Positions 1 to 61,239 of a stretch of DNA of 64,000 nt are shown in pieces. The DNA comes from Octopus vulgaris (lineage: Eukaryota), in the NCBI GenBank assembly GCA_951406725.2, contig OX597821.1:66774001-66838000 (forward strand), written 5' to 3'. Position 1 is the first letter of the stretch. The number at the start of each line of letters is the position of its first letter. The position numbers and the translations under genes are program-made. The notes under the pieces are model-generated. The model saw nothing but the letters and a program-made list of their open reading frames with translations. It was not told the origin of the DNA and searched no databases.

Positions 1-1143
1 ATGATCTGTCACAAACTGCGTGGTCTCGGCATAGGCGGGAAACTTGGAGAGTGGCTGCACAACTTCCTAAAAGACAGAAAACAGGCAGTTGTGAGCAATG
101 GAGCCACCTCCAAGGAAACGCAAATAACAAGCGGTGTCCCACAGGGCACTGTCTTGGGGCCACTGATGTTCATAGTGGCCCTTTCAGACATGCCTTCAGT
201 TGCTACGATGACCACCCTTGCTAGCTATGCAGATGACACAAAAGTCTCCCACGCAATACAAAACCCTGAAAATATTGCGCATCTGCAACATGAGCTGGAC
301 ACAATATACAGGTGGGCTGAGGACAACAACATGCAGTTTAATGCAGGTAAGTTCCAGGCCCTGCGCTACTGGCACACAAAGGTAAATGACGTGAAGACTG
401 GATACACTGGCCCAGGAAGAATTGCAATCCCTGAGTCAAAATCAGTGCGTGACCTGGGCATTGACATGAGCAATGATGCATCTTTCCAAATGCATATTGC
501 TAATCTGGTGATAAAATGCAGACTGCTAGCTGGATGGATTCTCCGAACTTTCAGAACAAGAGAGAAGGAGACACTGATGGTCCTATGGAAAACATTCGTC
601 CTCAGCCGCTTGGACTACTGCTCCCAAATTTGGTCACCACACAATATAAAACAAACAGCAGAACTCGAAGCAACTCAGAGAAGCTACACAAAGAAAATCG
701 TCTCAATGCAAAATGTGAGCTACAGGGAAAGACTGAAGGTATTAAACCTTTTCTCCCTGGAGCGGATGCGGGAGAGATATGCAGTGATATACATCTGGAA
801 AATCCTGGAGGGTCTTGTCCCAAACTTTGGCATTCAAAGTTACTCCAATCGCAGAACGGGGCGCCGCTGCGTGGTGCCAAGGATTCCAACATCACCATCA
901 AAATACAGGTCCAGATACTGCAACAGCTTGGGTTTCAGAGGACCACAGCTCTTTAACATCCTCCCTAAATGCCTGAGAGACTTACATGGTGTGGATGTGG
1001 GTTTCTTTAAAACTAAACTGGATCTCTTCTTGTTGGGAGTCCCAGATGAACCTACCTCACGACAGGAGACACAGATGCGGGTAGCAGCATCGAACTCCCT
1101 TGTTGATCAAGTGCCACGTATCAGAGGTGGATTCACAAACTAG
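1..1143 (+). CDS. Non-LTR retrotransposon ORF2 C-terminal part (reverse transcriptase), CR1-group LINE; the 5' part probably lies outside the window
   Basis: Open 380-aa frame with RT motifs SGVPQGTVLGP and YADDTK, plus CR1-type downstream motifs (WAEDNNMQFNAGK, SRLDYCSQIWSPH, LFSLERMRERY). It begins just after where the DFxKAFD motif would be, so M1 is probably internal. Confidence 0.92.
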   Translation: MICHKLRGLGIGGKLGEWLHNFLKDRKQAVVSNGATSKETQITSGVPQGTVLGPLMFIVALSDMPSVATMTTLASYADDTKVSHAIQNPENIAHLQHELDTIYRWAEDNNMQFNAGKFQALRYWHTKVNDVKTGYTGPGRIAIPESKSVRDLGIDMSNDASFQMHIANLVIKCRLLAGWILRTFRTREKETLMVLWKTFVLSRLDYCSQIWSPHNIKQTAELEATQRSYTKKIVSMQNVSYRERLKVLNLFSLERMRERYAVIYIWKILEGLVPNFGIQSYSNRRTGRRCVVPRIPTSPSKYRSRYCNSLGFRGPQLFNILPKCLRDLHGVDVGFFKTKLDLFLLGVPDEPTSRQETQMRVAASNSLVDQVPRIRGGFTN

Positions 1144-1216
1144 TGTAGCTCATTCAGCGGTGGTGCCCCAGCATGGCCGCGGCCTTCGGGCTAAAACATT
1201 TTTAAGGATTTAAGGA
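1..1216 (+). mobile_element. CR1-group LINE 3' portion with short 3'UTR and (TTTAAGGA)2 tail, abutting (TA)n
   Basis: ORF stop at 1141-1143; UTR motif GGTGGTGCCCCAGCATGGCCGCGGCCTTCGGGCTAAAAC (1159-1197); TTTAAGGA twice (1201-1216). Confidence 0.85.
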
Positions 1217-1257
1217 TATATATATATATATATATATTATATTTATATATATATTTG

Positions 1258-1290
<33 letters not shown>

Positions 1291-2607
1291 TATACATATG
1301 TATATGTATATATATATATATATGTATGTATATATATATGACATTTCCAGGATTCAAGAGAATCAGGTACTTAAATAGTGAAAGCACCAAGGTCAGGTCG
1401 GGGTAGCGCTATCGTGTACAAACAATATATAAGGACAAATACATCCTCATTAAAGTAAACACGGATTTGTTGGGTCGATAAGGCCATTCAGCACTGTATA
1501 CCTGTTCTTGAGAATTTCCAATGAATTCTTACCCGTTTTCACCTGATGGAAACGGTATTTTTCATGATGTAACACTCCTGTTCCGCCATAAAGAAAACAT
1601 GTCTGAAACAAGTGTAGTGAACCACAATCCATCTGTTGTTATTGATTATGGAAATATTTCATTTAATTTTTTCTTCAGTTGTTTTTCTTCTTAATTAATA
1701 TCCACATTAATTTTACTCTTAATTAGAAAAGTCGAAAATACATTTTGTGATGGTACTAACCATCACAAAATGTATTTCATGATAAAATTATTCTATGATT
1801 TTTCTACCTCATTTTATTTTCCTGAGCAGTTTCTGATTATGCAGCAAAATGTTGTTTCCTATAGTTTATTATTAATTCTTGCAGTTAAATGTATACACCT
1901 ACACAGACACAATATATTATATACCTACAGAGATTTACATAATAGTTAAACACATAAGCGCGTTCTTCCTCTGCTTTGCAGGTGCATGAAAAAAGAACGA
2001 AGATGATATTTGTCTGACTGTTTTGCCGTTTGTTGACAACTTGCTTTCCCAATCAAGACCACAGATTATTTATCAATTATATAAACTAGTAAGACAAAGA
2101 ACTATTACATCAGTGCATAACATTTTTTGCATAAGTGTCGTTTCGACATATTGTAAATAACAAAAGAATGCCTATGTTATATGCAACAATAGTGAATAAG
2201 AAATAGCCATTAGAAAACTTTTACCTGTAAGAATAAATAACAAGAAGGTGAACATATTTCTTACTCTTCATAATCCCAAACGCTCTTTCATTGATCATTC
2301 TCTCAGAAATTCCTTAACGTGTACGCTCCCTCCAAAATAATATATATCGATATGCTCTCAGAATACCATCAACCATTCCAGTTACTTATGCCCCGTAATC
2401 TTCATCTAAGACTGCTCTTTCCCTTATTTTTCCCTCTTTTATCCCTTTTTGGGGGACAAGACCTTTATTAAAATTAAATTCATAAATATTGTGTTGTTGG
2501 CTATATAAATTTCTTTTGATTTTGCTAAGATGATACTTTTTACTGTTTTACAAAACCATAAGGATAATCACGTTTTTAATGATACCCTCAACTAATTCTG
2601 GAACTTA

Positions 2608-2772
2608 AGCGTAGGCGTAGCTGTGTGGTATGTAGCTTGCTTACGAACCACATGGCTCCGGGTTCAGTCCCTCTGCGTGGCACCTTGGGCAGCTGTCTTC
2701 TACTGTAGCCTCGGGACGACCAAAGACTTGTGAGTGGATTTGGTAGACGGAAACTCAAAGAAGCCTCTCGTA

Positions 2773-2826
<54 letters not shown>

Positions 2827-3074
2827 TATGTGTGTGTGTGTGTATGTGTGTGTGTGTTTATGTTTGTGTATGTGTGTTTGTCCCCCCAGCATCGCTTGAC
2901 AACCGATGCTGATGTGTTTACGTCCTCGTAACTTAGCAGTTCAGCAAAATAACCGATAGAATAAGTACTAGGTTTACAAAGAATTAGTCCTGGGGTTTGT
3001 TTTGCTCTATTAAAGGCGGTGCTCCAGCATGGGAACAGTCACATGACTGAAACAAGTAAAAGAGTAAATGAGAG
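2608..3074 (+). mobile_element. tRNA-derived SINE family A, full length, with internal (TA)n(TG)n
   Basis: A-box-like TAGCTGTGTGG, B-box-like GGTTCAGTCCC, ACCTTGGGCAG segment, and tail GGCGGTGCTCCAGCATGG..CAGTCACATGACTGAAACAAGTAAAAGAG. About 13 homologous copies in the window. Confidence 0.85.
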
Positions 3075-3249
3075 TTACTTTTCACCATTTAAACGACTAT
3101 CATGTAAACAAAATCAGTAACAAAGACTGTCTCCAGTTACTGTCACCAAATGAATCTTTCTCTTTCTCGGATATCGTAGTAGCTTATTCCGATAAAATTT
3201 ACTGAAGAACATTGTTTTGTTTATGGTTTTCCCAAAAGGAACTCTCTCT

Positions 3250-5350
3250 TGATTATTTTTATTACATATAGAAATGATGTACCCATGAGATTGCTTCCTG
3301 AAAATATGGCTTACAGCACTGGATGGAATATTCATCGCATGCTTTCATCGCCTATTCGCAAACCTCATCCCTGTCCATGAGTTTGATAAACATGAATATA
3401 ATTTCCAATGAAAGCAGGATATCTACTAAATTGAAAAAATAAAAGAAAACTTATTTTCGATATCTTGTATCATTTGGAAAATGATAAACCCTTGGATTAC
3501 TTAAACTTTTGAGATAATTTCATGGAAAAGCTTTCAATGGAACATTCCGTTATGCAAACATTATAGAATGCAGAAAGAGGTTTGTTAGTTTTATACACAA
3601 TTTGTAAACTAATTGCTAAAATAGAAGAAAATGTTCGAAACTTTAGTGTTTGTCTATTTTGCTCTTACTGCACATCACACTATTCAATTGTCAGAGACTT
3701 GAGTAACAAAGGAACCGACAGTTCGCTCAATTCCTTTAATTAAGTCCACTGTTGGCAGAAGAATCGATAGGGAGGTCCAGAACATTGAAGAGGAATGCCC
3801 AGTTCAATTCAATCCAAGTATATTTTGTTACATCTATAAGAATCTAATTTAAAAGATGACGGTCTTCTCGCGGCTTCTGTGAGATTCTGAAGCGAGTACA
3901 AATTAAAGGAGGAAATGTAATTTGCTCATAAGATTAAAATGGAATGGTAAAGGACTAACTATTTATTTATAATTGGATTTACGTAAGCGTAAGCGTGAGC
4001 AATAATCTAAGGGAAAATATAATTTATTGTAGAACTAACAGTTCTACTGATACAGTTGAACAACACAAAGAATTCATCACTCATATGAGATAAGTTTTAC
4101 ATTCCGTCTCACAGGGAGCGCCTAAGTAGCAAAAATCTTAGGAGTGCATGTTCGTAATTCGCTTTCACTTGTCATAAGTTCTGAAAACTTCATCAAATTC
4201 CATGCCCTGCAAGATAGCTTGTAATAGTATACGTATGAAGAAAATAATGAAGAATTCCTGAAATGCTGGTATATAATTTCTCTCGTGTCTTATAAGGAGC
4301 CTCGAGGAAGAATTGTTGGCGCTGTGACAGAAAATATTTTTGGTAAGTATATTCTGAAAAATTAATTTATTAAACAAAATTTGATGGCTCAAGAGACAGT
4401 AATCTCATGGATAAATCGAAGCTATTGGTTCTGCTGCTGAATATCTCAGTTTAGTTTTAGCAAACTAATACATCGAGATTTTTATGATATCCAAACTTGA
4501 AGATGATCATAGAAGAACCGGAAGACGATTACCTTGACATTAAAGCAAAACAACTCAAGCAGACATAAAATGATATACGCGCAAGATTTAATAACCTGTT
4601 ACACCTCGTTATTTTGTATTGAATTTTGAATCCATTTGAAGTCCCCCACCCCCAGTTTGAAGCCGAAATTCAATAGATTTTGATTGATCTTGAGACTCAT
4701 AGAACTGAATGCTATCAGTTCAGTCAGTTCAGTTCCAAAAAATATTTGAATCAATACTGAGTTGCCAAATAAATTTACCGTATTATTGAGAAAAGCTGGA
4801 AAATTCTGCATTACCTTTGTATAAACATACTTGCTTGAACGCATGCTCAGAAGAATGGTTTCATTTTCAAAATCCAGAAATATAATAAATATTAGTTTCA
4901 AATTTTGGCACAAGACCAGCAATACCAGTAAAGTGAAAAGTCAATTACATCGATCCCAGTTCTCAACTAGTATTTATTCTATCGACACCAACACTGATGA
5001 AATGCGAGGTTGACCTCGAACTAATTTGAACATTTTGATTCTGCCAGATCGCCGCCTTGGAAACACAATACTGCGACACAAGAGACTGGCTTCGAATATT
5101 ACCCTCCAATTTCGAAACACTTATCATGGAAATCCCAAGGACACGAAGCTCAAGAACTGCATCAGATGTGACCGTGGTGATTTTCATTTACTAATTTTTT
5201 CAACAGTTTTTAGAGCATTTCAAAATATTCGCAGTTTTGGGGGTTCAACATGTATTATACTCTGTCTGTTCGTGATTTACTGAAGAGATGAATGGAAATA
5301 ATTTCCAAACCTTGTTTTAAAGAGGGCCCTGCTCAGGAACCTGAGAACAC
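3250..5350 (+). pseudogene. Highly decayed hAT (Buster/Charlie-type) transposase fossil, interrupted by a SINE fragment near 4960-5030
   Basis: Collinear degenerate peptides read across stops and frameshifts: KYG (~3302), IISNES (~3400), DKPLDY (~3483), IPLIKSTVGRRID (~3730), EEM*FA (~3910), ILNPF (~4622), KFCITFV*TYLLER (~4801), DRGDFHLL (~5170). They match the order of Buster motifs as I recall them (IPLSNxTVxRRID, WILNPF, FPSSYLVERGFS, RGDLRL). Confidence 0.62.
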
Positions 5351-5903
5351 CTTCTAAAGAGATCATCGGCAAAATTGGTCGTAATTGGCGGATCGGAAAG
5401 ATAAAGTAGCCTGCTGAATCCAGAATGATCTTTCAAGAAAAAATATGAATTGATACACTAAAATATACAAGTGTCTATTTTGATTTATACAAGGTAATTG
5501 TATTAAATATTTTGTATTTTATAAACATGTAGAATTTATTCAGTGCCTGTTTATTTAACAATTATTTTGTTTGTGTTGTTGTATAGTTTATACAGTTCTA
5601 TGTTTTAAATTTAAAAACTGTGACACGAACGTTGACACAAAATAATTAGAGCTCAGTTAGAATGTAAGAAACTTTGGTTCAAAGCGGAGGATAAAGATTT
5701 CCTAAACATGCTCACTGAAACAATGCTCAAACGAATGACGTGGGGTCGAATAATTGAGAAGAATGCTTAAAATATTTACTGCATGTAAGAATTTACATGC
5801 ACTGGTGAGCGAAGCTGTTCTGCAATTTTCTGGTAAAATATATAAATTCTTACTAAAGAAGTAAAATCATCAAACACATTTTATTTCATATATATATATA
5901 TAC

Positions 5904-6005
<102 letters not shown>

Positions 6006-6019
6006 TATATATATGGAAG

Positions 6020-7900
6020 CACTTACTACAACTAAAACCGACAAAGACCTGACAATCAAAGAAGCAGACAAAGGTAGTGCTTCAGTCCTGATGGACACAG
6101 GATACTATAAAAACCTAGCATTGTCCACACTATGAAAAAGTTGCAAATTATAGACAGCAAAAAAGCATTAAAAGATCTTGCATCTTTAATACTCAAACAT
6201 GGAAAAGGCAAGAAAAAGAAAATAACACAAACTTTAAATGCAAGCCAAGCCTTTTCTATGACCACCCACCAAATCCTCAAGAGTCAAATAATTACTAATG
6301 CCTGCAAATCAAATCCAGCTCTATACATAAATATCCCAACACCAGAAGACTTGAAATGAAGGCCGATTATAGCGAGCCCAGCCGGTGAAATACACCGCCT
6401 AAGCAACGTTCTGGATATACTATTGAAACCTTTCCTCAGATACATTAAAAGTTTCATTAGAGATGACCTGAAAATGCCAGAGCATCTACCAAATACCACA
6501 ACTAAGACGCACTATTAGTCTCCTTCGATGTTATCCACCTTTACACTAACATTCCACATGGCTACGGAATAGAGGCAATAAAATTCTGGTTAGAAAAATA
6601 CACCGAACTTATTCCGGACCGACTCAGACTTTTGTCATTGAATCCCTGAAGTTCGTCCTAGAAAACAATTATTTCCTATTCGATGCAACCTACTACCGCC
6701 AAAAATGCGGTATTGCGATTGGAACAAAATCAGTGCTTGTCCTTGCGAACCTAATAATGGGTTTCTTTGAATCTATCCTATATGAACTTTCGCCCCAAAC
6801 ATTAGGATCTCCATTCTACCAGTTTATAAGATAAAACTGGAAGAGGTATCTAAACGATTGTTTTATCATCTGGATAAACTTCTGGATTTCAAATCCACAC
6901 TGAACAATATAAACTCCAAAATTCAATTTACAATGGAATATAGCAAGGAACAGCTCCCATTTCTGGACATTTCGATTATTAAAAAATCTAACATGCAAAT
7001 TGCATCTGACATCTACTACAAACCAACAGACTCAAATCCGTATCTCATTTTCAGCTCATGCCATCCTAAACACACCAGAATACATATCTCAATCAATTCA
7101 GCAAAAAGGATCTGTACAATTTTATCTGACAAAACCACTCGGGAACTTCACCTACAAGACCTCAAAATAACTCTCATAGAACGTCAATACCCAACCGCAC
7201 TTATAGACCATGCAATTACACGTGCCAAGAAATTGGACACAAAGACACTAAGGACAACAAAACAAAACACCACACCTTGGTTTAAATCATTTCCATACAT
7301 ATCAACCCACAACTCCAGAATTAATGAAGCATACAACACAATTATACAAAATCTCCCCCTGGTCACTCAAGACCCGAAAATGTACAACACCCTAAATGCA
7401 CAAATGAAAAAGCAACACAAATCACTAAAGAGACTCCTAACAACTGCAAAACTATATTCAATACATACGATACCAACAGTTAAAAAATACCTACGACCTA
7501 ATTGTGGTACATACCCATACCTAACTGAAGGCTCGGAATTCACATTTCACCAAGGAGAAAAATTCTCAATTAAGACCAACTTCACATGTACTTCCCAGAA
7601 CCTTATCTATGTCCTAACCTGCTCAGGTTGTGGTCACAATTATGTGGGCTAAAGGCGCCTTACTTTGAAATGCAGAGTCACATTGCATAAAGAACAGATT
7701 AGTTCTCTTCAATACAGGCAGATAACCCTCAACGAACATATCGACAGATGCACAAGAAGTAAAACACCGAATTTCCATATCTTTCCATTATACCAATGCA
7801 AAGATTCAATCTCCTTACTAGATCGCCTAAACAAGGAAAACCTGTTCATACAAAAGAACAGACCACACCACACTTTAATATACAAACTTGTCTAACATTA
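6020..7900 (+). mobile_element. Penelope-like element (PLE), 5'-truncated and frameshifted: RT plus GIY-YIG endonuclease
   Basis: IKEADKGSASVLMD, RPIIASPAG, LVSFDVIHLYTNIP, GIAIGTK..LANLIMG, WKRYLNDCF (decayed YxDD), IQFTMEYSKEQLPFLDI, YYKPTD, and NLIYVLTCSGCGHNYVG (GIY-YIG with CxxC). Flanked by (TA)n. Confidence 0.9.
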
Positions 7901-8102
7901 CGTATTACTCTTTCAACAATTATACTGTGGTGTCAGTTGCCCCCCTTGCCACATGTTGCCTCTCTTTGTCCACTCTCTAGAATTATTCTTACTTTTCAAG
8001 CATCTAAAATGGAGAGACCCCTTTGCCACAAGAATTGAATATTTCACAATTATCCCTTAAAAAGCTAATTTAAATAGTGTTGGATATAACGATATCCATA
8101 AA

Positions 8103-8163
<61 letters not shown>

Positions 8164-8453
8164 ACATTTCTTTATAAAAAGGTATTAAACTTTGTGAAAC
8201 GAAGGCATTTCTCTTCCAGTTTTTATTTAATTTTTCCACATATTTTCAACACATAATTTTTCCTCGCGGCGTATACTGAATCTCCAGTATTTTTGGTCCT
8301 TTTATAGTTTAATATTTCTACTATATATATATATATACTAATATATATATACACTAATATACACACGCACACATACATATATACTACATATATAGATACA
8401 AACGTACATACATGCATATATACATATTTATGTGTGACATTCATTCATACTTG

Positions 8454-8487
<34 letters not shown>

Positions 8488-9759
8488 GCTGTAAAAATAA
8501 ATGTATATATGTATCTCCTTCTGTCTGTGAGTATATATATATATACCGAGAGAGAGAGAGAGAGAGAGAGAAGGGGAGATATGCACACTCATGAACACGC
8601 ACAGATACATCTTATCTGGTATCTAGTAGATTTTTCAGATGGTTACTGTTTCGGTCAGGAATAACTCTTTACTCTTTGACATCGTTGCTTTTTGAACAAC
8701 AAAGGCTTCTATATTTTTCCATTAAAAATTATGTAAAAAATAAAAGAAAATTATAGTGATATCAACGCATATCTGTGGTTGTTCGAAAAGCTTAAATGAA
8801 TCTGCCAGCATCAACTTTAATGTTCCTCAGAGATCACGCAGCGATGGCTTACTTAAATTTACTTAATATTGGTCGTCCTTTTGGTTTGATACTATCCAAC
8901 CCGTCAGCTTCGACTTTCTGTGTTCCTATATACTAAAAGAAAGAGTCTTTGAAGAATCTCAGTATGGGGAGCTAACAAAAGGCTCGCAGCTGGATCTGAG
9001 ACAATTCCTACAGTGTTCAGCATTACTGTTAGGAATACAGATACACTATAGAGTGAAACACGACAGGACTTCTCTAATATCCTGACGTAAGTCTAGAACA
9101 CTTTGGTAATTCGTGTTCTTTCACAGTTGGAATGCGATGAGAAACAAATGTACGTTGAATAAAGAATTCTTTAGTTAGAAGCCGAGTGTTTTTTTGTAAT
9201 GGATCTTCTCTTTACAGTGTGACAGAAAAATGTTGTTGTAATTACAGATGGTGTTTGGCCGTTTATACTTAAGTCTATCTGTGTATTGACAATGCTATTC
9301 AAATATGTTCATTCATTCGTTAAAGTGTACACACACATACACACACACACACACACACACAATGTACATATAGAGAGAATGAAAGAGGAAAGAGGAGGAA
9401 GCTTTCCGCCAAAGACCATAGTGATCGCATTGACACATGGAATTGCATAAAAGACATATTATGGAATTTATATCCCAGCCCCCTTCCCACATGTATGCAA
9501 GTACGTGTGTGCGTATGTGTGTGTACTGTGTATGTGTGCGCACGCATATGTGTGTGTATGTACTTATATATATATACATACACAGAGACACTGAGACACG
9601 TATATGTTACGTACGTGTGTATATATATTCATACATATACATATATATATACATATATACATATATATACATATATTTATACATATATACATATATAGAG
9701 AGAAAGCGACAGAGAGAGAAAGACAGACAGATAGAAACAGAAACAGACAGACACACAGA

Positions 9760-9780
9760 CAGATAGACAGATAGATAAAT

Positions 9781-9823
<43 letters not shown>

Positions 9824-13949: not shown

Positions 13950-14530
13950 AAGGCGACGAGCTGGCAGAAACGTTAGCACGCCGGCCGAAGTGCTTAGCGG
14001 TATTTCGTCTGCCGCTACGTTCTGAGCACAAATTCTGTCGAGGTCGACTTTGCCTTTCATCCTTTCGGGGTCGATTAAATAAGTACCAGTTACGCACTGC
14101 GGTCGATGTAATTGACTTAATCCGTTTGTCTGTCCCTGTTTGTCCTCTCTGTGCTTAACCCATTGTGGGTAGTAAAGAAATAGGGATTTCGTCTGCCGCT
14201 ACGTTCTGAGTTCAAATTCCGCTAAGGTCGACTTTGACTTTCACCCTTTTCCGGTCGATTAAATAAATACTAGTTACGCACTGGGGTCGATGTAATCGAC
14301 TTAATCCGTTTGTCTGTCCTTGTTTGTCCTTTCTGTGTTTAACGCCGTGTGGGTAGTAAAGAAATAGAAATAGCTATTTCGTCTTCCGTTACGTTCTGAT
14401 TTCAAATTCCGCCGAGGTCGACTTTGCCTTTCATCCTTTCGGGGTTGATAAATTAAGTACCAGTGATGTCAATGTAATCGATTAGTCTCCTCCTGCCAAA
14501 ACTTCATGTCTTGTGCCTATAATAGAAAGG
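13950..14530 (+). mobile_element. SINE family B, trimeric (one head plus three ~185-bp body units)
   Basis: Body restarts at 14000, 14184 and 14374. The last unit has an alternative tail (CTTGTGCCTATAATAGAAAGG). Confidence 0.85.
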
Positions 14531-18532: not shown

Positions 18533-18611
18533 TAAGGTGAAAATTAATGCAGAATCATAAAGAACGTTAAGTCAATTCATGGACAATTAAATGGTGCATG
18601 GACGCCAGTAT

Positions 18612-19176
18612 TTTACTGGTACTAATTTTATCGACACCGAAAGGCTGAAAGGCAAAGTCGACCTCTGCGGAATTTGAACTCAGAACGTAACGGCAGGTGA
18701 AATACCGCTCAGCATTTCGCCCGGCGTGCCAAAGATTCTGCCAGCTAGATGCTTTCTTTTCGTGTTCCTAAATCATATTATTTTCTACTCTAGGCACCAG
18801 ACCCGAATTTTGGGGGAGGGTCCAGTGGATTAGATAAAAACCCAGTACGCAACTGGTATTTAATTTATCGACCTCGAAAGGATGAAAGGCAAAGTTGACC
18901 TCGGCGGAATTTGAACTCAGAACGTAACGACAGACGAAATGCCTATTTCTTTACTACCCACAAGGGGTTAAACATAGAGAGGACAAGCAAGGACAGACAA
19001 ACGTATTAAGTCGATTATATCGACCCCAGTGCGTAACTGGTACTTATTTAATCGACCCCGAAAGGGTGAAAGTCAAAGTCGAATTCGGCGGAATTTGAAC
19101 TCAGAACGTAACGGCAGACGATATATCGCTGAGCATTTTGCCCGGCGTGCTAACGTTTCTACCAGCTCGCCTCCTT
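18612..19176 (-). mobile_element. SINE family B partial monomer (18612-18752) and dimer (18780-19176)
   Basis: Dimer junction GACGAAATGC|CTATTTCT at 18942/18943; the terminal unit carries the alternative tail. Confidence 0.82.
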
Positions 19177-19989
19177 ATTTTCGAGTTCCTAAATCATATA
19201 GCAATAACAAAGAATCACCTACCCTCCCGCTAAATTATGGTATCATCCAATTTCATAGAAATCTCTTCAATGTTGCCATGACTTTGGGAACTCAATACGG
19301 AGAGCACAAATAAAATTAATAATCTACAATAAAGCATTAGTAAGCATTAGTACAAATTACGATGATGGCAGTGAACAACACTTGTATTCCGAAAATGCTT
19401 CGATAATCCTATTTCCTTAAGAGTAAAGAAGCATTGGATAGATTTGGAACTTTTAGTTAGACAAGCAATGATTGCGGACTGCGAAAGAAACCAGAGAAAG
19501 CTTCATCATAGAGACGGTAGAGACATGTGAGAGAAGAAAGAACCGGGACATTCCTTTGCAGCATCAATGTTGCTCCGCATTACAGGAAGAAGCGATTTTA
19601 TCGGAAGTTGTCATAACGATTTTGATCTTTAGTCGATGCCGGGTAACTGGAAAGTTTTGCTATGTAAATATAGACGCTAACGTAATACTCACAATTCCTT
19701 GCATAAATCATGGTATTGTCTTTGCAAATACGCTTACAGGATAAATTTACGAACAAACTAAAAATGATTGAATACCTGACCAACAGCAAATATATTGTAT
19801 GAATTAGATCGGGCTTCTTCACATTTTATTACCAAAAGTTTAATGCCATGAATAACATATTTAATGATGAGACTTTCGCTATAGTTTCCGAAAGCAGTTA
19901 GGTCGTATGCATTACTCATTGAAATATAAAGCACATAAATCCTTATTTAAATATATATTTATACACATATATATATAGTATGTATGAAA

Positions 19990-22215: not shown

Positions 22216-22642
22216 GGGTTATTCAAAAAGAACGAACCGATTTCATTACGCAATATTTCAATAAGGAAAATCAATAGAAAACTCAAGTTAAGTCACAAGT
22301 ATTTACTCACAATCACCTTTTATTTCCTGTCTTGCAAGTGCTCAACGTGACCGCCACCTGCAGCAAGAGTAACATCAATGCGATAAGAGAATTCCTCCCA
22401 GGCGCGTATCAGCATATCATGATCCACTGAAGTTGATCGCTGTTGTTATTCGATGTTTACGATTTTTTTCTTGTGGGGATATGTAAAACATCGCGTTTAT
22501 GCTCCACCGCTACTCACTAACCCCGATGACCTTAAACATCGAATAACAACAGTACTCAACTCATTGGATTGTGATATGCTGATACGCGTCTCCGAGGACT
22601 TCCCTTATCGCGCTGATGTTGCCCGTGCTGCAGGTGGTTTGC
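22214..22642. mobile_element. Tc1/mariner-derived non-autonomous element built from inverted transposase 3' ends
   Basis: TA|CAGGGTTATTCAAAAAG terminus. The + strand encodes FFLWGYVKHRVY...DLKHRI...DMLIRV...YRADVARAAGG (Tc1-type C-terminus). 22350-22458 is an inverted copy of ~22533-22640. Confidence 0.75.
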
Positions 22643-25314: not shown

Positions 25315-25316
<2 letters not shown>

Positions 25317-25731
25317 TTCATTCTTTCATTTGTTTTAGTCATTTGACTGCGGCCGTGGTGTGGTACCGCCTTTAATAGACCAAATCGACCCCAGGACTTA
25401 TTCTTTTTAAGCCTAGTACTTATTCTATCGGTGTCTTACCGAACCGCTAAGTGGCGGGGATATAAACACACCAGCATCGGTTGTCAAGCTATGTTGGGGA
25501 GACAAACTCAGACACACAAACATATACATACACACGCACACGCACACACATATATATACATATATATATGAGGGGCTTCTTTCAGTTTCCGTCTACCAAA
25601 TCCACTCGCAAGGCTTTGGGAGGCCCGAGGCTATAGTAGAAGACACTTGCCCAAGGTGCCACGCAGTGGTACTGAACCCGGAACCATGTGGTTCGTAAGC
25701 AAGCTACTTACCACACAGCCACTCCTGCGTA
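25315..25731 (-). mobile_element. SINE family A, full length
   Basis: Homology to family A. Confidence 0.87.
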
Positions 25732-25834
25732 TATATATATATACACACAATCGATAGGAACAATCAAAATTTACTCGGAGATATTTCTATGTACAATTTA
25801 TACAATAGCAGCCAATACCGATCTATATTTACCA

Positions 25835-26170
25835 ATGTGGAAGCGCGGTTTGGATTTCAAACCGGATATTATGAGTGTTTATAGAGCGAAAACACCTAAA
25901 GCTCCATGAGGCTCCGGCAGGGCTGGTGGTGAACCCTGATGTATTCCTTCACAACAACTTTCTCTCACTCTTTCTTCCTGTTTCTGTTGTACCTGTATTT
26001 CAAGGGACCATCCTTGTCGCCCTGTGTCACGCTGAATCTCCCCGAGAACTACGTTAAGTGTACACGTCTCTATGGAGCGCTCAGCAACTTGCACGTTAAT
26101 TTCACAAGCAAGCGCTGTTCCGTTGATCGGATCAACTGGAACACACGTCTTCGTAACCGTCGGAGTGCCA
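25835..26170 (+). mobile_element. tRNA-derived SINE (head C + tail X)
   Basis: GAGCGAAAACACCTAAAGCTCC body shared with 29798 and 53800; tail X shared with 10641. Confidence 0.78.
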
Positions 26171-26384
26171 CGACGACGGCAATGAAGAGCCACTAAGTGT
26201 GGAAAGAGTTTGGATCCAAAAGTAATAATACTGCTTTAGGAATGAAGTATTGAATATTGTTGCCTTTCGTAGAATATTTATTGTGATATGGAAACAGCTG
26301 GCATCCCTTGTCCATAAGTCTGATGAATCATGATTAAAACTAATGGAATTTCAGTTCATCGATTGTTTGAATAAATTAATAGTA

Positions 26385-26798
26385 TAGGCATAGGAGTGGC
26401 TGTGTGGTAAGTAGCTTGCTTACGAACCACATGGTTCCGGGTTCAGTCCCACTGCGTGGCACCTTGGGCAAGTGTCTTCTACTATAGCCACGGGTCGACC
26501 AAAGCCTTGTGAGTGGATTTGGTAGACGGAAACTGAAAGAAGCCCGTCGTATATATGTATATATACATATGTATGTGTGTGTGTATATGTTTGCGTGTCT
26601 GTGTTTGTCCCCCTAACATTGCTTAACAGCCGATGCTGGTGTGTTTACGTCCCCGTACCTAGCAGTTAGGCAAAAGAGACCGATAGAATAAGTACTAGGC
26701 TTACAAAGAATAAGTCCTGGGAGCGATTTGGTCGACTAAAGGCGGTGCTCCAGCATGGCCACAGTCAAATAACAAAAACAAGTAAAAGAGTAAAAGAG
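26385..26798 (+). mobile_element. SINE family A, full length, near consensus
   Basis: TGGCTGTGTGG A box, GGTTCAGTCCC B box, internal TA/TG run, LINE-like tail and (GTAAAAGA)2. Confidence 0.9.
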
Positions 26799-27576
26799 AG
26801 AGAGAGAGAGATAGTATCTTGAATAAAACCTAAGTTAATGAGCTGCTTGAATCATTAGCTCGCCGGTCAAAATACTGAGCGGCATCTCTTCTGGGCTTAT
26901 GTTCTGAGTTCAAATTCCGCTGAGGCTGACTTTTCCAATCGGTGTCCATGAAATACGTTGCAATAAATCATTGGGTTCCAAGCTAAATCCCTCCACTTAA
27001 AATTGCCTGTCTCGTGCCAAAAACAGAAAGAGTAATTGTTTGTTAAGAAAGTGTGAGTGAAATTTTAAGGGAATTTATGCATATTAAAGTATGTTAAATT
27101 TTGCTCTGTTACCACAAAGCCGTTCGTCGTTCACCATCCATTCAAAAATGCCCAGCAGCCACAACAAAACGAAGCAGTCGTCCAGCTGCCGACTCCTAAG
27201 GATTCGAACTTACGAAGGGCATCAAATTATAAACATTATTTAATAATGGGGATGAAACATTTTATGGTTTCAAGATTGCCACGTCACTGAGCAACATAAC
27301 ATCAAGAAAATAATGCGCGGTGTTATGCCTGTGGAACAATTCGCAATGCAGGACACAGTCCCAAAATGTGACTATAAATACGAAAACCATAAACATACAC
27401 ACACACACACTCTGTCGCTTTAAAGAAATTAATGTTAACCAGCGAAAGTTTTGTATGTTACTATTAACATGTTAAACTGAAATGGAACTCATTGTTTATA
27501 CATATATATGTATGTGTATATCTCTATCTGTATATGTGTGTGCGTGTGTCGGTGTGTTGTGTAAAATATATGCATG

Positions 27577-34057: not shown

Positions 34058-34104
34058 AACGGTTCTTTAAGACAGAAGGTTTGGAATTTTATAGAAATTT
34101 GTTT

Positions 34105-34697
34105 AAGGTGGCGAGTTGGTAGAATCATTAGCACGCCGGGCGGAATGCTTTGTGGTATTTCGTCTGCCATTACGTTCTGAGTTCACATTCTGCCGAGGTC
34201 GACTTTGCCTTTCATCCTTTCGAGATCGATTAAATAAGTACCAGTTACGCACTGGGGTCGATATAACCTACTTAATCCGTTTGTCTGTCCTTGTTTGTCC
34301 CCTCTGTGTTTAGCTCCTTGTGGGTAGTAAAGAAATAGGAATTTCGTCTGCCGTTACGTTCTGAGTTAAAATTCCGCCGAGGTCAACTTTGATTTTCATC
34401 CTTTCGGGGTCGATTAAATAAGTACCAGTTACGCACTGGAGTCGATGTAATCGACTTAATCCTTTTGTCTGTCCTGTGTGTGTTTAGCACCTTGTGGGTA
34501 GTAAAGAAATAGGTATTTTGTCTGCCGCTACGTTCTGAGTTCAGATTCCGCTAAGGTCGACTTTGCCTTTCATCCTTTCGGGGTCGATTAAATAAGTACC
34601 AGTTACGCACTGGGGTAGATATAATCGACTTAATCCGTTTGTCTGTCCTTGTTTGTCCCATCTGTGTGTAGCCCCTTGTGGGCAGTAAAGAAATAAG
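34105..34697 (+). mobile_element. SINE family B, trimeric
   Basis: Body units start at 34155, 34339 and 34513; the second and third each follow GTAAAGAAATAG. Confidence 0.88.
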
Positions 34698-35572
34698 AAA
34701 TTTGTTTATTTCAAGCAGGTCCAGACATCATTTAGAAGCTCCTCCTCTTTTTGAGTGAAACACTTGTTATTGAACCTGAAATAACGAAGGTTAAAAACGT
34801 AATACAACAGTGATACGAATTCACATAGACCTAACGTAACGTATTCTTGTAATAGTGAAGATCATGAAATAACAGTTCTGGTGATTCGCTGATTGTAATA
34901 TTATTGCTACAGCTAACATAGATATAGTGTGTGTAGATAGTGTTATAAGGAGAATAATAGAATTATTACTAAATTAAAATTATGATAATAATCTGAAATA
35001 GCACAAACCACAGCAATAAACAAGAAGCGCTCACACGCAGACTGACCTACACGCAATCACATACAAAACAGATATTTACAGGCGCACACACTCAAACATA
35101 CGTCGACGCACAAATAACAGAAGAAAAATGAAAGTAAGAATTTCTGTTTAGTTATATAGGTGTTGCAGGAATATACGTTTATCGGTAGTTCTCCATTGAT
35201 TTTATCTAATTTCCGTTTCTGTAGACACGAAATAAGATTTTCATAAAATCGCCATCTTATTTTATTGCTTTCCATTATTTCAACTGTTTTGCTAGACACT
35301 GGACACGGGAGGGAGAGAAAGAGTGAAATGGGTACAGAGAGAGAGAGAGAGAGAGAGAGTGAAAGAGGGAGAGAGAGAGTGGATGAGATACATTGGTGGT
35401 GGTGGTGGTGGTGGTGGCGGGGTTCTTTTATCACTATTTCAAGCAGAGAGTATTGTGTGTTCTAGATATATCGGACTATTAACTTCGTCCATTCAGTGTA
35501 GAGATGCACTTCATTTTGATTTCATGTATTTCATGATCGCTTTCTGTATTTACACGTACACAAACACTCACT

Positions 35573-48470: not shown

Positions 48471-50946
48471 TGAAGAACAAATATCGACGGATATTATCAC
48501 TCGTTGCTCTAATGACTCTTCGGATTCGCCGTTTCGCAAATAATTCCAAGATATAGAAGAGAAATACATAAATGTGTTTAAAATATCATGTATGTCTTTC
48601 AAGTTGAAGTAATGATGAGATTTCATGTAGAAATGCAGGTATGTCTAAATAGTTCACGAGCATGCTTTGCAAGAACGTTCGAACCCACTGCGCGACACCT
48701 TGGTGCATTCTCCTCTCATACAGTCCTCGATCGACCGCGAGTGATTGTTGGTAGATGCGACTTGTATGGTGGCCACTCGAAAATGCCGTTGCACTTCTAG
48801 AATTATATTCTTAGATCGCGACTGAAATTCAGAACTTCACATGCAACAAAGTTTTGGATCGTTTTGCTCTGTTCGGGATATCTAGAGTCGGCAAGGCCGG
48901 CCTCTGCTTAGCCTGCTCCTCTTTGTAGGCATTGGTAGATAGGGAGGGTTTATGCTCGGATTGCTCCTCCAAGTCTAGCTACCTTCCAAGACAACCGAAC
49001 ACAGACCACCCACTCAGCTATGCAAGCATTGTAGCTGTGGATAGACGAGTACCTTCTCTAAGAGATATACTTACGAAAAGATCAATATGTACCTCACTCC
49101 CAGTGGTCTCACAGGAAGCATCACTGAATTTCTAACACCCCGGATTATTAACAGATGTTCGTCGGCAATACCTGAAGTTCATCCACCGTTTTGCCATGCG
49201 TTTGTTTTGCCTTACTTGGTTTCTGTAAATCTCCTAACTAGCTGAACCAGGGGTAGTATTAATTTGTTGCTCGGTTTAACTGCAACGTCCGACACATAGG
49301 TGTTTTTATCACAGTCCATTCTATGGCAATTATTCAAGACATGTTCTTGGTCTAGAGATAAATTTCTCTTTTTTGCCTAACAGACAAAATTCTTGAAAAG
49401 CCTATAACATTCCCTTTCTTCCATCAATAGCGTCATTAAAAAAAAAAAGAGAGCTGTGAAAGAAGATATACATCATATAAAGACGAATTTCTGAACAGAA
49501 ATTCGGTTAAGATAGGCACGTTGTCTGCTTTTTTAGAGAGACATTATATAATATGACCACCTTGGTTGTTACGAGCGAGTGTTTGTGCAAAAAGATATAT
49601 GCAATGAAATATTTATGCATTGAAAGAAAAGTGAGAGTGGTCATTGTATTTTTTAAATAGAAAAATGAGAAAGAAGAATGAACTGCTAGGAAAAGAGGGA
49701 AATTAAGAAGAATATTTGTTCCATTAAAAAGGAACAAAGCTATTCCGTCTCAATATTGAACACAAAGTGAAGTTTAGCAATAAACCTTCGCAGTATTATT
49801 GGGAAACAATAAATTGTGCATGGAAAGTAATCTTGTGAACTCTGGGAAAAAAGCAAAAACAAAAAAAAAAACTATAAAAAAAAACTCACTGCAAAATCGC
49901 TCGGCAGGTTTCTTTTCACTTAGTATAAAAGAGAGAAATATTTACTAGCTTAGATCAAAGAAGAAATAGCGAGCACAATATCATGAAAACAATTTAGAGG
50001 ATTGGAAATGATGTTATATTAAAAGCTATACTGTACTACGTATTTTATCTATAGATTTTTTTAAGCAACATTCTTTTAGACAGATGTAAACACCTTGGCT
50101 TTATATACGATATCTTTGCAGTGAGGAAAATGAGAGATCAATCGTTCTAGATTCAAACTTATGCTGGTATTTCATTAGTGACTCATAACTCCCTCAAAGT
50201 TAGCTTATAAATCCACCATTACTAAGGACCTGGGTACATTGAATACACCAGTTTTTTTTTGGCAGCTAGTATGATAAATACATTATTATTGCATTAGGAG
50301 TGTTTTGTTTCAATTCTTCTCCGTTCTACAGAATACAGCTATCGATTATCAACCGAGACTATATGGAGAGATCAGTGTAAACACCTGGGCTTTAAATAAA
50401 ATATATTCTTGTACAGAAAAATACAGACAAGCCTGCACGGTTGTATTTGTAACTCTTAAAATAAGGTTATTACTTTAAAACAAGCTTGAGTGTAAGGACG
50501 GAACATATATGGATGGGGTGACTTTATACAGAGAGTTCAGCCTATGGATTTCCTCAACCAGTAGTTGAAAAGACCGATAGACGAATTTCGAAGTCCCACT
50601 CAACTTCATCGATTTATAATTACAGAATTATTATGTAGTTCTGTATAGGGCTGAGGGAAAATATTACCATATCAATAATCATATTTATTAGTCGAAATAT
50701 CTGATAAAGATGTGGAACAGTGTGTCCGATTTATCTAACACCAAAGAAATAGTAAGAGTTTTATTTCTTAAGCCATATCTTTCTAGATAATAGAAAAGAG
50801 CACTCAGGACCTTATCATCCCCTAACTCAAAATTGAAACCAATCTCTTTGATCCATTTTATTTTTTGTACACGATGGTACTCTCTAGAAAACAAGATATC
50901 TACAACATTCTATATTTACTTTTGGCTACATATCTATAGATATGTT

Positions 50947-51362
50947 CCTATTTCTTTATTGTCCACAAGGGGCTAAACATAGAGGGATAAAACAAGGACA
51001 AAGGTATTAAATCGATAACATCGACCCCAGTACGTAACTTGTACTTAATTTATCGACCCCGAAAGGATGGAAGGCAAAGTCGACCTCGGCGGAATTTGAA
51101 CTCAGAACGTAGCGGCAGACGAAATACCTATTTCTTTACTACTCTCAAGGGACTAAACACAGAGAGGACAAACAAGGACAGACATACGGATTAAGTCGAT
51201 TATATCGACCACAGTGCGTAACTGGTACTTATTTAATCGACCCCGAAAGTATGAAAGGCAAAGTCGACCTCGGCGGAATTTGAACTGAGAACGTAGCGGC
51301 AGACGGAATACCACGAAGCATTTCGTCCGGCGTGCTAACGATTCTGCCAGCTCGCCGCCTTC
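50947..51362 (-). mobile_element. SINE family B, dimer
   Basis: Junction GACGAAATAC|CTATTTCT at 51127/51128. Confidence 0.87.
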
Positions 51363-51371
51363 TACATATCT

Positions 51372-52709: not shown

Positions 52710-53120
52710 ACTCTTTTACTCTATTACTTGTTTCAGCCATTTGACTGTGGCCATGCTGGAGCACCGCCTTTTAGTCGAGCAAATCGACCCCAGGACTTAT
52801 TCTTTGTAAGCCTAGTACTTATTCTATCGGTGTCTTTTTCTGACCTGCTAAGTCACAGGGACGTCAACACACCAGCATCGGTTGTCATGCGATGTTGGTG
52901 GGGGACAAACACACACAAACACACACCAACATATATGTACATATACATATATACGGCGGGCTTCTTTCAGTTTCCGTCTACCGAATCCACTCACAAGGCT
53001 TTGGTCGGCCCGAGGCTATAGTAGAAGACACTTGCCCAAAGTGCCACGCAGTAGGGCTGAACCCTGAACCATGTGGTTGGTAAGCATGCTACTTACCACA
53101 CAGTCACTCCTACACCTATA
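52710..53120 (-). mobile_element. SINE family A, full length
   Basis: Homology to family A. Confidence 0.88.
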
Positions 53121-53799
53121 TGTCTATCGATTTATACCAAGTTGAGGGTTCATGAACAAAGCCTATTCACCAACTCGGTTTTGATCAGTTGATTACCAAT
53201 TCACCAATTTTCTATTATAGCTACCGGGGCTGAATATATGAAAACGTGAAAGCCTTTATGTATTCGCTTGATCTGACAGAAATAGACTCAAAAGCCACCC
53301 TTAATTCACACGTTACTATCTTCAAACAGCTCACTTTTATAAGATATACCTGTAGACTCATGATAAAGGCAAGAGTTTCAGAGCTGGAAACAGCTTTCAT
53401 CATAATTCACGTTTATCAGAGCTGAAAGAGGCAGAATATCAACGACGGATACTTTTTAAATATTTGATGTGGTAGATACGTTATGTCTGAAAATTAGATG
53501 ATACTATCACTGTCGGAATATATCTGGTTATAGATCTGGTCGATAGAGCTGCTCTGGGGTTAATCAACAACAACAACAACAACAACAACAATAACATCAA
53601 CGTCAACAACAGTATTGGCTTACTTGTTTAATGTTGAGAAATAACTTGAATTAAATAACATGATAGTTACAGTACTGAGTGATAAAAAAATATTTAAACA
53701 ATATGCATGAATAATTAAGCTTAAGAAAAAATACTATATATGATAGTTGCTTAAGTATAATGAATAATAAGCAGTATCATAGTAACACATGTAACATTC

Positions 53800-56296: not shown

Positions 56297-56592
56297 TACA
56301 GAATCGTAAAATATATTTGCCAACTAAACGTGGCGGTCCTACAGAGGACAGTGCTAATGTTGTTTTTAGCACCAGGAAGACATCTCCTCCAGCTGGCCAA
56401 CAGCACACAGTCTGTATCCGATTAGTATTTGCGAATGGGAGCGATGACCTCCCTCGCAAATACTAATCGGACACAGACTGTGTGTCGTTGGCCAGCTGGA
56501 GAAGATGACTTCCTGGGGCTAAAAACAAGAGTAGCATCGTTTTCTATGGGGCCGCCACATTTAGTTGGCAAATATATGTTTTACGATAAAAC
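56297..56592. mobile_element. Fold-back (palindromic) MITE-like element with ~135-bp arms and a ~7-nt loop
   Basis: TTTGCCAACTAAA...CCAGCTGGCCAAC..CACAGTCTGT..CCGATTAGTATTTGCGA is mirrored on the other side of ~56445. Confidence 0.75.
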
Positions 56593-59269: not shown

Positions 59270-59530
59270 AAGAGATGGGCTCTGCGAGGCTTAACATACA
59301 CAAAACATGACATATTGAGAAATGCGCAAAGCAACTACTGCCACAATTTATAATTTTTCCATTCTATCAATGTGCCATTGGAACACCAGCACAAATTAGA
59401 TTAAATAAGGAAACCATCTTCATTGAAAAATATAAGCCAAAACTTAACCACTTCTAACATTTTTAAATAAGGAAACTCACCTCATTGAATATGAAATATA
59501 AAGCAAAATCTAACAACTTGTAACATTCTA
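59270..59530 (+). pseudogene. PLE GIY-YIG C-terminal fragment with a ~63-bp tandem duplication of the ORF end
   Basis: HIEKCAKQLLPQFIIF/FYQCAIGTPAQIRLNKETIFIEKYKPKLN* aligns by eye with HIDRCTRSKTPNFHIFPLYQCKDSISLLDRLNKENLFIQKNRP of ORF 7665-7895. Confidence 0.72.
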
Positions 59531-59844
59531 TTCCTTCTAAACCAAATCATGTTTAATTAATCAAGCCTAGTCATTCCCAACATGTTTGATTATCTCCCTT
59601 ATACCGGAAAAAATCCCTGATTACCTTCCCCTGCCTGGAACTCCATATTTCACAACATAGCGAAGACATGACACGATATAGGTAAAGAAATCTGAGAAAT
59701 TTGAAAAGAAAATACGAAACTGGTTATTTCTCCAAAATCTATGTTTCTATACGCAAAATTACCTAACATTTTTCTAACATAACGATTTAAATATATTCTT
59801 TAACCACATAACACAAATCTTCTGTAGTTTTATTCACTCTTTTT

Positions 59845-59892
<48 letters not shown>

Positions 59893-60012
59893 ACAATCAA
59901 GGAACGGCCATAATAGGCCATTCACCCACTAGAAATAACAGCCAAAGCTTCAACCGCAAATAAAAGTTAATTCTGTAAACCAGGAGAAAATTTAAAAAAC
60001 ATTTACCCTGTA

Positions 60013-60119
60013 ATTTCTTATACGATATACCGTTTCATCTGCTGATTAATGGTAAACTAACCTGATTAAATTAAATCAAGCCAATCTTCCACAGGCCCTC
60101 AGATTCATCAGTAAGAAAT
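60013..60119 (-). ncRNA. Type I hammerhead ribozyme (copy 1)
   Basis: Reverse complement of copy 2: ATTTCTTA-CTGATGA-ATCTG...CAGAT-GAAA-CGGTATATCG-TA-TAAGAAAT. Confidence 0.85.
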
Positions 60120-60869
60120 AGCCCAAGTCGGAACAGATATTTTCACGAGGCATTTCCGACTTTGCCAAGTTTATATCTGACCTAAAATTTTCAAATCGTC
60201 GCACTCGCGCCAAATTTATCGGCAGCAAATAAATATAAGCCGTCGATTCCATTACGGAATTAACCAGAAAATTCATAATTAATCAATATAGGGTGGCAAA
60301 AAAAAATTTTGTAGAATTCTTTTGCCACCAGCGGCCTAGTAGGAAAAAATTAAATAGTCATAGACCATTTTTAAGTTTAACATCAACAATCAAGGAACGG
60401 CTATAATAGGCCATTCACCCACTAGAAATAACAGCCAAAGCTTCAACCGCAAATAAAAGTTAATTCTGTAAACCAGGAGAAAATTTAAAAAACATTTACC
60501 CTGTAAATTTTCTCCTGGTTTACAGAATTAACTTTTATTTGCGGTTGAAGCTTTGGCTGTTATTTCTAGTGGGTGAATGGCCTATTATGGCCGTTCCTTG
60601 ATTGTTGATGTTAAACTTAAAAATGGTCTATGACTATTTAATTTTTTCCTACTAGGCCGCTGGTGGCAAAAGAATTCTACAAAATTTTTTTTGCCACCCT
60701 ATATTGATTAATTATGAATTTTCTGGTTAATTCCGTAATGGAATCGACGGCTTATATTTATTTGCTGCCATAAATTTGGCGCGAGTGCGACGATTTGAAA
60801 ATTTTAGGTCAGATATAAACTTGGCAAGGTCGGAAATGCCTCATGAAAATATCTGTTCCGACTTGGGCT

Positions 60870-60975
60870 ATTTCTTACTGATGAATCTGAATTTGCTGTA
60901 AGATTGGCTTGATTTAATTTAATCAGGTTAGTTTACCATTAATCAGCAGATGAAACGGTATATCGTATAAGAAAT
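60870..60975 (+). ncRNA. Type I hammerhead ribozyme (copy 2); predicted cleavage after GUA at 60967
   Basis: Stem I ATTTCTTA (60870-77) with TAAGAAAT (60968-75), 8 bp perfect. CTGATGA at 60878-84. Stem II ATCTG (60885-89) with CAGAT (60947-51). GAAA at 60952-55. Stem III CGG-TATA-TCG. U16.1-A17. Confidence 0.87.
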
Positions 60976-61194
60976 TACAGGGTAAATGTTTTTTAAATTT
61001 TCTCCTGGTTTACAGAATTAACTTTTATTTGCAGTTGAAGCTTTGGCTGTTATTTCTAGTGGGTGAATATATTATGGCCGTTCCTTGATTGTTGATGTTA
61101 AACTTAAAAATGGTCTGTGACTATTTAATTTTTTCCTACTAGGCCGCTGGTGGCAAAAGAATTCTACAAAATTTTTTTTGCCACCCTATATTGA

Positions 61195-61239
<45 letters not shown>

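Follow-up and report, generated by a model that had tools for sequence, protein, structure and literature searches.

Penelope-like elements (PLEs) leave recognizable marks where they insert, including partial tandems, an adjacent inverted and 5'-truncated copy, a tail of 30 to 40 bp, and (TA)n targets, and Naiad elements that lack hammerheads also show inverted copies (PMC8557442). Palindromes at head-to-head junctions have led to the inference of self-priming on an antisense template (PMC3846280), hammerhead pairs are described on opposite strands 100 to 700 bp apart (PMC4209133), and the inverted repeats of D. virilis differ in size (PMC2377424). A PLE protein cuts and extends both target strands, and reverse transcription starts at two internal sites with a spacing that corresponds to the genomic tail (PMC11167929). 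In its accessible text the same study reports that ribozyme mutants leave in vitro insertion unchanged, and that no RNA-seq reads start or end at the hammerhead cut. The origin of the PLE inverted repeats and the function of the hammerhead are called unresolved in PMC8557442, and the available part of PMC8490949 contains nothing on junctions.

Non-LTR retrozymes have been defined and tied to PLEs as their non-autonomous derivatives (PMC7229834; 10.64898/2026.07.22.740005). Their mobilization by PLEs is argued from phylogeny and co-occurrence (10.64898/2026.07.22.740005), and dimeric and trimeric RNAs are seen for axolotl retrozymes (PMC7229834; 10.64898/2026.07.22.740005). A dimer-type hammerhead design with a self-complementary helix III is also described (PMC4209133). 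Snap-back junctions, often following full-length cDNA, are reported for R2 (PMC11371274, PMC11331408). In the accessible text of these retrozyme sources, "inverted" does not appear in PMC7229834, and its single appearance in 10.64898/2026.07.22.740005 is within a reference title.

Structure and surroundings of the insertion

The window (the whole 64-kb stretch of DNA that was analyzed) contains a 1.3-kb palindrome that is flanked by (TA)n tracts and consists of two head-to-head arms of one ~490-bp repeat with a hammerhead. Its features are as follows.

59850 to 59889, unstranded, left (TA)n tract, the likely target priming the left arm
59889 to 60506, minus strand, left arm, 618 bp or 1.25 units of the ribozyme repeat
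60013 to 60119, minus strand, type I hammerhead of the left arm, with its core at 60111 and the predicted cut after 60021
60488 to 60503, unstranded, palindrome loop of 16 nt, in the left arm only
60504 to 60506, unstranded, TAA microhomology of 3 nt, common to both arms and the turning point
60504 to 61202, plus strand, right arm, 699 bp or 1.4 units
60870 to 60975, plus strand, type I hammerhead of the right arm, with the CUGAUGA core at 60878 to 60884 and the predicted cut after 60967
61097 to 61202, plus strand, 3' extension ("tail") of 106 bp, at the right end only
61200 to 61235, unstranded, right (TA)n tract followed by (CATA)n, the likely target priming the right arm

Both arms are partial tandems of the ~490-bp unit, and both terminate in (TA)n, at unit positions 106 bp apart. 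The 3' end of the left arm is at +129 past a cut site and its 5' end is 7 nt before the next predicted cut, whereas the right arm starts 26 nt past the cut-site equivalent and ends at +235 after the cut. The target is a microsatellite with (TA)n on either side, within which a target-site duplication is unreadable, and the sequences flanking the palindrome are two different unique sequences. The element has no ORF of at least 150 aa, and there are no further copies of the unit within the 64-kb window, where the best other matches are 16 to 25 bp. The arms differ from each other at 8 places in ~593 aligned bp, and the first 85 bp of the palindrome stem are perfect. This anatomy, with its coordinates and 3-nt microhomology, is shown, as is the membership of the unit in an abundant tandem family, described below.

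Two PLE remnants are present in the window.

59311 to 59454, plus strand, decayed C-terminal part of a GIY-YIG endonuclease ORF of PLE type, with 83% identity to P0001 over 47 aa
~6400 to 8100, plus strand, second PLE remnant, which spans the RT thumb, the linker, and the GIY-YIG part and has (TA)n at its end near 8105

The first is a separate, older insertion immediately to the left of the (TA)n tract that borders the palindrome. The RT-endonuclease portion of the second (~6933 to 7865) aligns with P0001 over 315 aa at 51% identity, and the alignment contains one stop. P0001 itself has a weak GIY-YIG match (E 0.014, below the Pfam cut-off) and a CX4CxxC linker that belongs by inspection to the Neptune/Nematis type, which PMC8557442 names. 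As judged from these translated similarities, the two remnants show that PLEs are present in the host genome, which is animal-like and microsatellite-rich. The palindrome's unit has no similarity to the 3' ends of the two remnants (alignment scores of 26 and 21, at or below those of shuffles), and it has neither an ORF for RT and GIY-YIG domains nor, in comparison with these two remnants, pLTR homology. For 14 of 20 long window ORFs tested, Pfam returned nothing.

Several other features of the region are noted. The decayed PLE 3' end extends from 59311 to 59850 (plus strand), reaching the left (TA)n tract, and the stretch at 59687 to 59730 looks by eye like a decayed minimal hammerhead with a 5-bp stem I and one core base missing; it lies ~120 nt before the (TA)n tract, the same spacing as in the palindrome's unit. 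An inverted repeat at 56303 to 56587 has 127-nt arms that are 87% complementary with a 19-nt spacer, is single in the window, and is possibly a fold-back element or another turn-round insertion; a weaker inverted repeat is at 22354 to 22637. The inverted repeats at 25514 to 26604 and 56303 to 56587 have no hammerhead by descriptor. A SINE-like interspersed repeat of ~400 bp, which holds a CA/TA microsatellite, is also abundant (25315 to 25730, 26371 to 26800, 52711 to 53135, and others) and may be an octopus SINE; its microsatellite is internal. A second repeat family has ~184-bp tandem units in short dispersed arrays (13950 to 14530, 18600 to 19200, 34100 to 34705, and 50945 to 51370), and it too has no hammerhead by descriptor.

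The ribozymes and the repeat family

The hammerheads of both arms have the CUGANGA and GAAA cores, the NUH site, and the three stems, with stem I open, that are expected of type I. The stems are of 8, 5, and 3 to 5 bp, and the predicted cut site in both is GUA (GTA in DNA). In the right arm, stem I is 8 bp, stem II is 5 bp with a long loop II hairpin, GAAA is at 60952 to 60955, and a self-complementary helix III is at 60955 to 60966. Two descriptor scans of the 64-kb window report the hammerheads at 60878 (plus) and 60111 (minus) and nothing else. Rfam returns no match at the gathering score in the window and no hammerhead among its 39 matches at E values of 10 or below. The CTGATGA motif by itself is at chance frequency in the window (11 seen versus 10.3 expected). 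Rfam miRNA matches across the palindrome were set aside as generic hairpin matches below threshold.

The hammerhead regions fold better than shuffles (z about -3), with the active fold above the minimum-energy fold by 1.8 kcal/mol in the left arm and 5.8 kcal/mol in the right. Loop II is very long, at ~57 nt in the unit, and helix III in its window form self-pairs over 12 bp, with a self-duplex of -13.6 kcal/mol. Each arm has exactly one intact ribozyme and halts before a second, in contrast to the two consecutive complete hammerheads by which an active non-LTR retrozyme is recognized in the accessible part of the preprint 10.64898/2026.07.22.740005.

Part of the right arm is present in 20 of 24 listed runs from 12 studies, all as contigs and none recorded as RNA. 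For four of these 20 runs, contigs were aligned to one unit (60716 to 61202), with 674 to 9,810 contigs aligned per run and many variants; summed depth does not equal copy number. The head-to-tail joint from 61202 to 60716 is present in all four runs, and, together with the number of contigs in each, it establishes an abundant tandem family. With tandem non-coding units, one hammerhead in each, and high copy number, the unit belongs to a family of the non-LTR retrozyme type. Pattern scans for the element gave 0 loci in metagenome contigs and 0 in viral contigs; the sole match in a prokaryote genome, of 26 bp in a Methanosarcina MAG, was set aside as chance.

Variation in the family falls on the free core position 7, where loose contig ends carry a different base. 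It also includes a linked double change at 60960 to 60961, which has matching depth in four of four runs and by inspection leaves helix III self-complementary. From these two patterns the predicted ribozyme looks to be under selection, and the variation fits a working ribozyme. The change at 60960 to 60961 amounts to natural covariation for a dimeric hammerhead.

The local copies carry letters that are in the minority by summed depth at 61100, 61137, 60943, and 61014, and from these shared letters we infer that both arms come from one source. The left-arm form of loop II occurs in family contigs (in loose ends), and the right-arm form is absent among the contig rows listed. A 1-nt indel at 60769, considered as a sign of two templates, was dropped, as contig clipping there makes the shares of the two forms unreadable.

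Eight joints are listed among the contigs, of which one is the tandem joint and seven are same-strand skips. There is no strand-changing joint among these eight, nor among the 12 listed of 48 joints with letters between. With a further 36 joint rows, 206 loose ends, and 19,578 pieces outside these listings, and with rare forms dropped from contigs, this does not amount to evidence that such joints are absent. Two of the seven skips resume at 60968, the first base past the cut (one in X1 and one in both X2 and X5), with a nominal P of 0.001 to 0.006, and these joints are weak in that the short side has 20 to 25 letters, the letters between are unknown, and there are 1 to 3 nt of microhomology. 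The two skips, of 165 and 48 nt, are perhaps template jumps, shortened circles, or alignment effects. One loose-end consensus from X4 shows a 5' junction at which a microsatellite abuts the unit near 60755, a long way from the cut, and this junction counts against uniform ends at the cut.

The window's own head-to-head junction is not seen among the contig joints listed, and the family is very abundant, both of which would be expected if the palindrome were an assembly artefact derived from a fold-back read or a collapsed repeat. However, contigs lose rare variants, so that absence among the listed joints weighs little, and the different unique flanks, the eight arm differences, and the termination of the arms at different unit positions are all unlike a fold-back read. 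An artefact is thus barely credible.

The turning point and the predicted cut

The palindrome itself, on a unit of retrozyme type, is a product of a kind already known for PLEs. An earlier, sequence-only reading of this DNA did not mention that inverted, 5'-truncated copies are an established feature of PLEs. That reading placed the turning point next to the predicted cut, and the left arm does follow a complete copy to 60506, 7 nt before the next cut, or 10 nt before it when the shared TAA is counted with the right arm. It also described the 16-nt loop, which is present at 60488 to 60503, and a right arm longer by about 108 bp, which measures 106 bp. Its turn-back through microhomology stands as to presence, at 60504 to 60506, but the match is of 3 nt only and is not special, because 208 of the 487 unit positions offer a fold-back primer of at least 3 bp with a loop of 30 nt or less, and the pairing probability of the TAA in the DNA ensemble of the cDNA end is low (0.002 to 0.045).

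Under a uniform model, applied post hoc to a single event, the chance is 0.022 that one end falls no more than 10 nt downstream of the cut (0.055 for 26 nt), and 0.003 that both ends, if they are independent, fall within 26 nt of it. It is plausible from this single insertion that the cut position decides where the DNA copy turns round. We found no literature that places inversion points at the hammerhead cut, in a search mostly without subscription papers and with supplements excluded.

These values bear on the simplest alternative, an ordinary PLE-type inversion in which the cDNA or cDNAs are randomly truncated at the 5' end and joined by microhomology, with closeness to the cut arising by chance. 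Inverted 5'-truncated copies are common in PLEs with or without a hammerhead (PMC8557442), the same 208 of 487 positions would allow a 3-bp fold-back, ribozyme cleavage is dispensable in vitro (PMC11167929), and the feature was noticed after the fact. The small chances for the left end alone and for both ends together stand against it, as do, more weakly, the two contig joints that resume exactly at the cut, and we regard it as somewhat unlikely. A second alternative is that the ribozyme was folded and uncut and that RT stalled at the base of its stem I, so that the position reflects structure and not cleavage. The last base of the left arm does correspond to 60975, where stem I (60968 to 60975) has its outer end, but stem I is weak (-4.5 kcal/mol), and in each arm RT passed a hairpin of -16.5 as well as one whole ribozyme; a stall is therefore very unlikely.

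The lengths of the arms are in line with run-off. If the arms are taken as products of target-primed reverse transcription, each is an antisense strand extended from its (TA)n end, and run-off on a cut-to-cut dimer RNA is expected to give 625 and 725 nt, compared to the 618 and 699 that are seen. Run-off at a ribozyme-made 5' end thus fits the lengths of both arms. An RNA circle as template would give no reason to stop at the observed ends, and a cut monomer RNA would yield arms without a ribozyme. Annealing of two cDNAs through TAA/TTA, with each then serving as primer on the other, would give exactly the observed junction.

In the reading that we prefer, a multimeric transcript would partly self-cleave to give a cut-to-cut dimer with one uncut ribozyme inside, and a PLE protein acting in trans would cut both (TA)n strands. 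RT would begin at two internal sites, at +129 and +235 after the inner ribozyme, using as template either one RNA or two RNAs of the same source. Both cDNAs would traverse the uncut ribozyme and finish at or just before the cut 5' end, with 7 and 26 nt lost, after which the cDNA 3' ends (TAA/TTA) could anneal and each prime on the other, generating both second strands and the palindrome. The differences between the arms would arise by later mutation. The two PLE-type ORF remnants in the window, the minority letters shared by the local copies, the signs of selection on the ribozyme, and the two weak joints at 60968 count in favor of this reading. Against it stand the presence of a single junction, with no second inversion point among the joints listed, the X4 junction near 60755, the unchanged in vitro insertion of ribozyme mutants and the lack of RNA-seq reads starting or ending at the cut (PMC11167929), the inverted copies of Naiads without hammerheads (PMC8557442), the differing sizes of D. 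virilis inverted repeats (PMC2377424), active folds that lie above the minimum, and the lack of a sequence link to the local PLE 3' ends. We advance it tentatively: a PLE protein may well have primed both strands of the (TA)n tract in a head-to-head insertion, with the cDNAs running out at the cut RNA end and annealing.

The sequence-only reading had instead proposed that a single cDNA ran off the ribozyme-made 5' end and snapped back to prime its own second strand. The run-off part agrees with both arm lengths, and snap-back is possible for the left strand, but snap-back alone is excluded: the right arm extends 106 bp past the start of the left arm and has its own (TA)n anchor, which pure snap-back could not produce unless there were a further template switch. 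An R2-type snap-back would make the inverted segment a copy no longer than the cDNA, whereas here it is 106 bp longer and has eight differences. What can be retained is a composite, in which the left cDNA, after running off at the cut end, would have folded back on itself (TAA on TTA), been extended into a sense stretch, and annealed to a second, right-primed cDNA. The junction geometry fits the left strand alone, since the loop sits in that strand and only it could snap back, and there is a precedent in R2, where snap-back follows full-length cDNA (PMC11371274). Six of nine arm-specific changes crowd into a distal stretch of 349 bp in the right arm (P 0.014, with the interval picked post hoc) and the first 85 bp of the stem are perfect, a pattern that looks as if the distal part had another template. 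The comparison of proximal and distal arm differences is, however, not significant (2/265 versus 6/328, P 0.31), the hairpin register has a pairing probability of at most 0.045, and the second cDNA is still required, which makes one step more than direct annealing. We consider this composite unlikely.

The sequence-only reading also raised, as a caveat, that the arms differ in loop II. They do, but at eight places and not in loop II alone. The eight arm-to-arm events correspond to 0.67% per copy, compared to four copy-to-copy events (0.59%) within the arms, and the caveat is weak because the differences between arms are no more than those between copies within them. The sequence differences do not separate the models. 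Taken jointly, the models linked to the cut are probably correct.

Implications and comparison with known systems

A unit that is short and abundant, and whose cut can be predicted precisely, is a natural ruler for whether cleavage sets the cDNA end, and a retrozyme-type repeat with PLE insertion marks gives structural support for PLE mobilization. It is possible, and we propose it as a conjecture, that the hammerhead sets the ends when PLEs drive retrozyme insertion, with a cut dimer RNA primed twice by a PLE dimer and the cDNA ends mutually priming. If so, no separate second-strand primer would be needed, arm lengths genome-wide would be quantized (whole units added to 129 or 235 nt, with a short trim subtracted), inversion points would accumulate just downstream of the cut, and the PLE-type hammerhead would acquire a defined job. 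If breakpoints prove random, the locus is an ordinary PLE-type insertion.

In L1 twin priming, reverse transcription of the RNA is primed by both target strands, and microhomology joins the two cDNAs, but the cDNAs cover different parts of the RNA and the result is an inversion without a long inverted repeat. At the locus described here, both cDNAs would span the same sequence and stop at almost the same point. R2 carries an HDV-like ribozyme. As may be the case for this palindrome, in R2 snap-back a cDNA 3' end primes on nearby cDNA to give an inverted segment at the 5' junction (PMC11371274, PMC11331408); R2 was studied there in an engineered system with a fixed rDNA target, and its copy cannot outrun the template, whereas the second arm here does.

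The locus is like animal non-LTR retrozymes in that its tandem unit is non-coding, carries a single type I hammerhead, is low in GC, and has a high copy number (PMC7229834; 10.64898/2026.07.22.740005). It differs from those described in the accessible parts of these sources in its unit of ~490 bp, compared to RNAs of ~170 to 400 nt, in its very long loop II, and in the arrangement of its two partial tandems, which are inverted relative to each other and come with a tail. The resemblance to EN+ PLEs (Penelope/Poseidon, Neptune, and Naiad) extends to partial tandems, an inverted 5'-truncated copy, a head-to-head junction, an extension at one end, (TA)n, and a hammerhead ~100 to 200 nt upstream of the 3' ends (PMC8557442, PMC3846280, PMC11167929), and of these marks the inverted 5'-truncated copy adjacent at the 5' end and the microsatellite target are both present here. 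It departs from them in having no ORF and a one-sided extension of 106 bp as opposed to a PLE tail of 30 to 40 bp, and in a junction that adjoins the ribozyme cut, an arrangement unreported in the accessible text of PMC8557442, PMC3846280, and PMC11167929.
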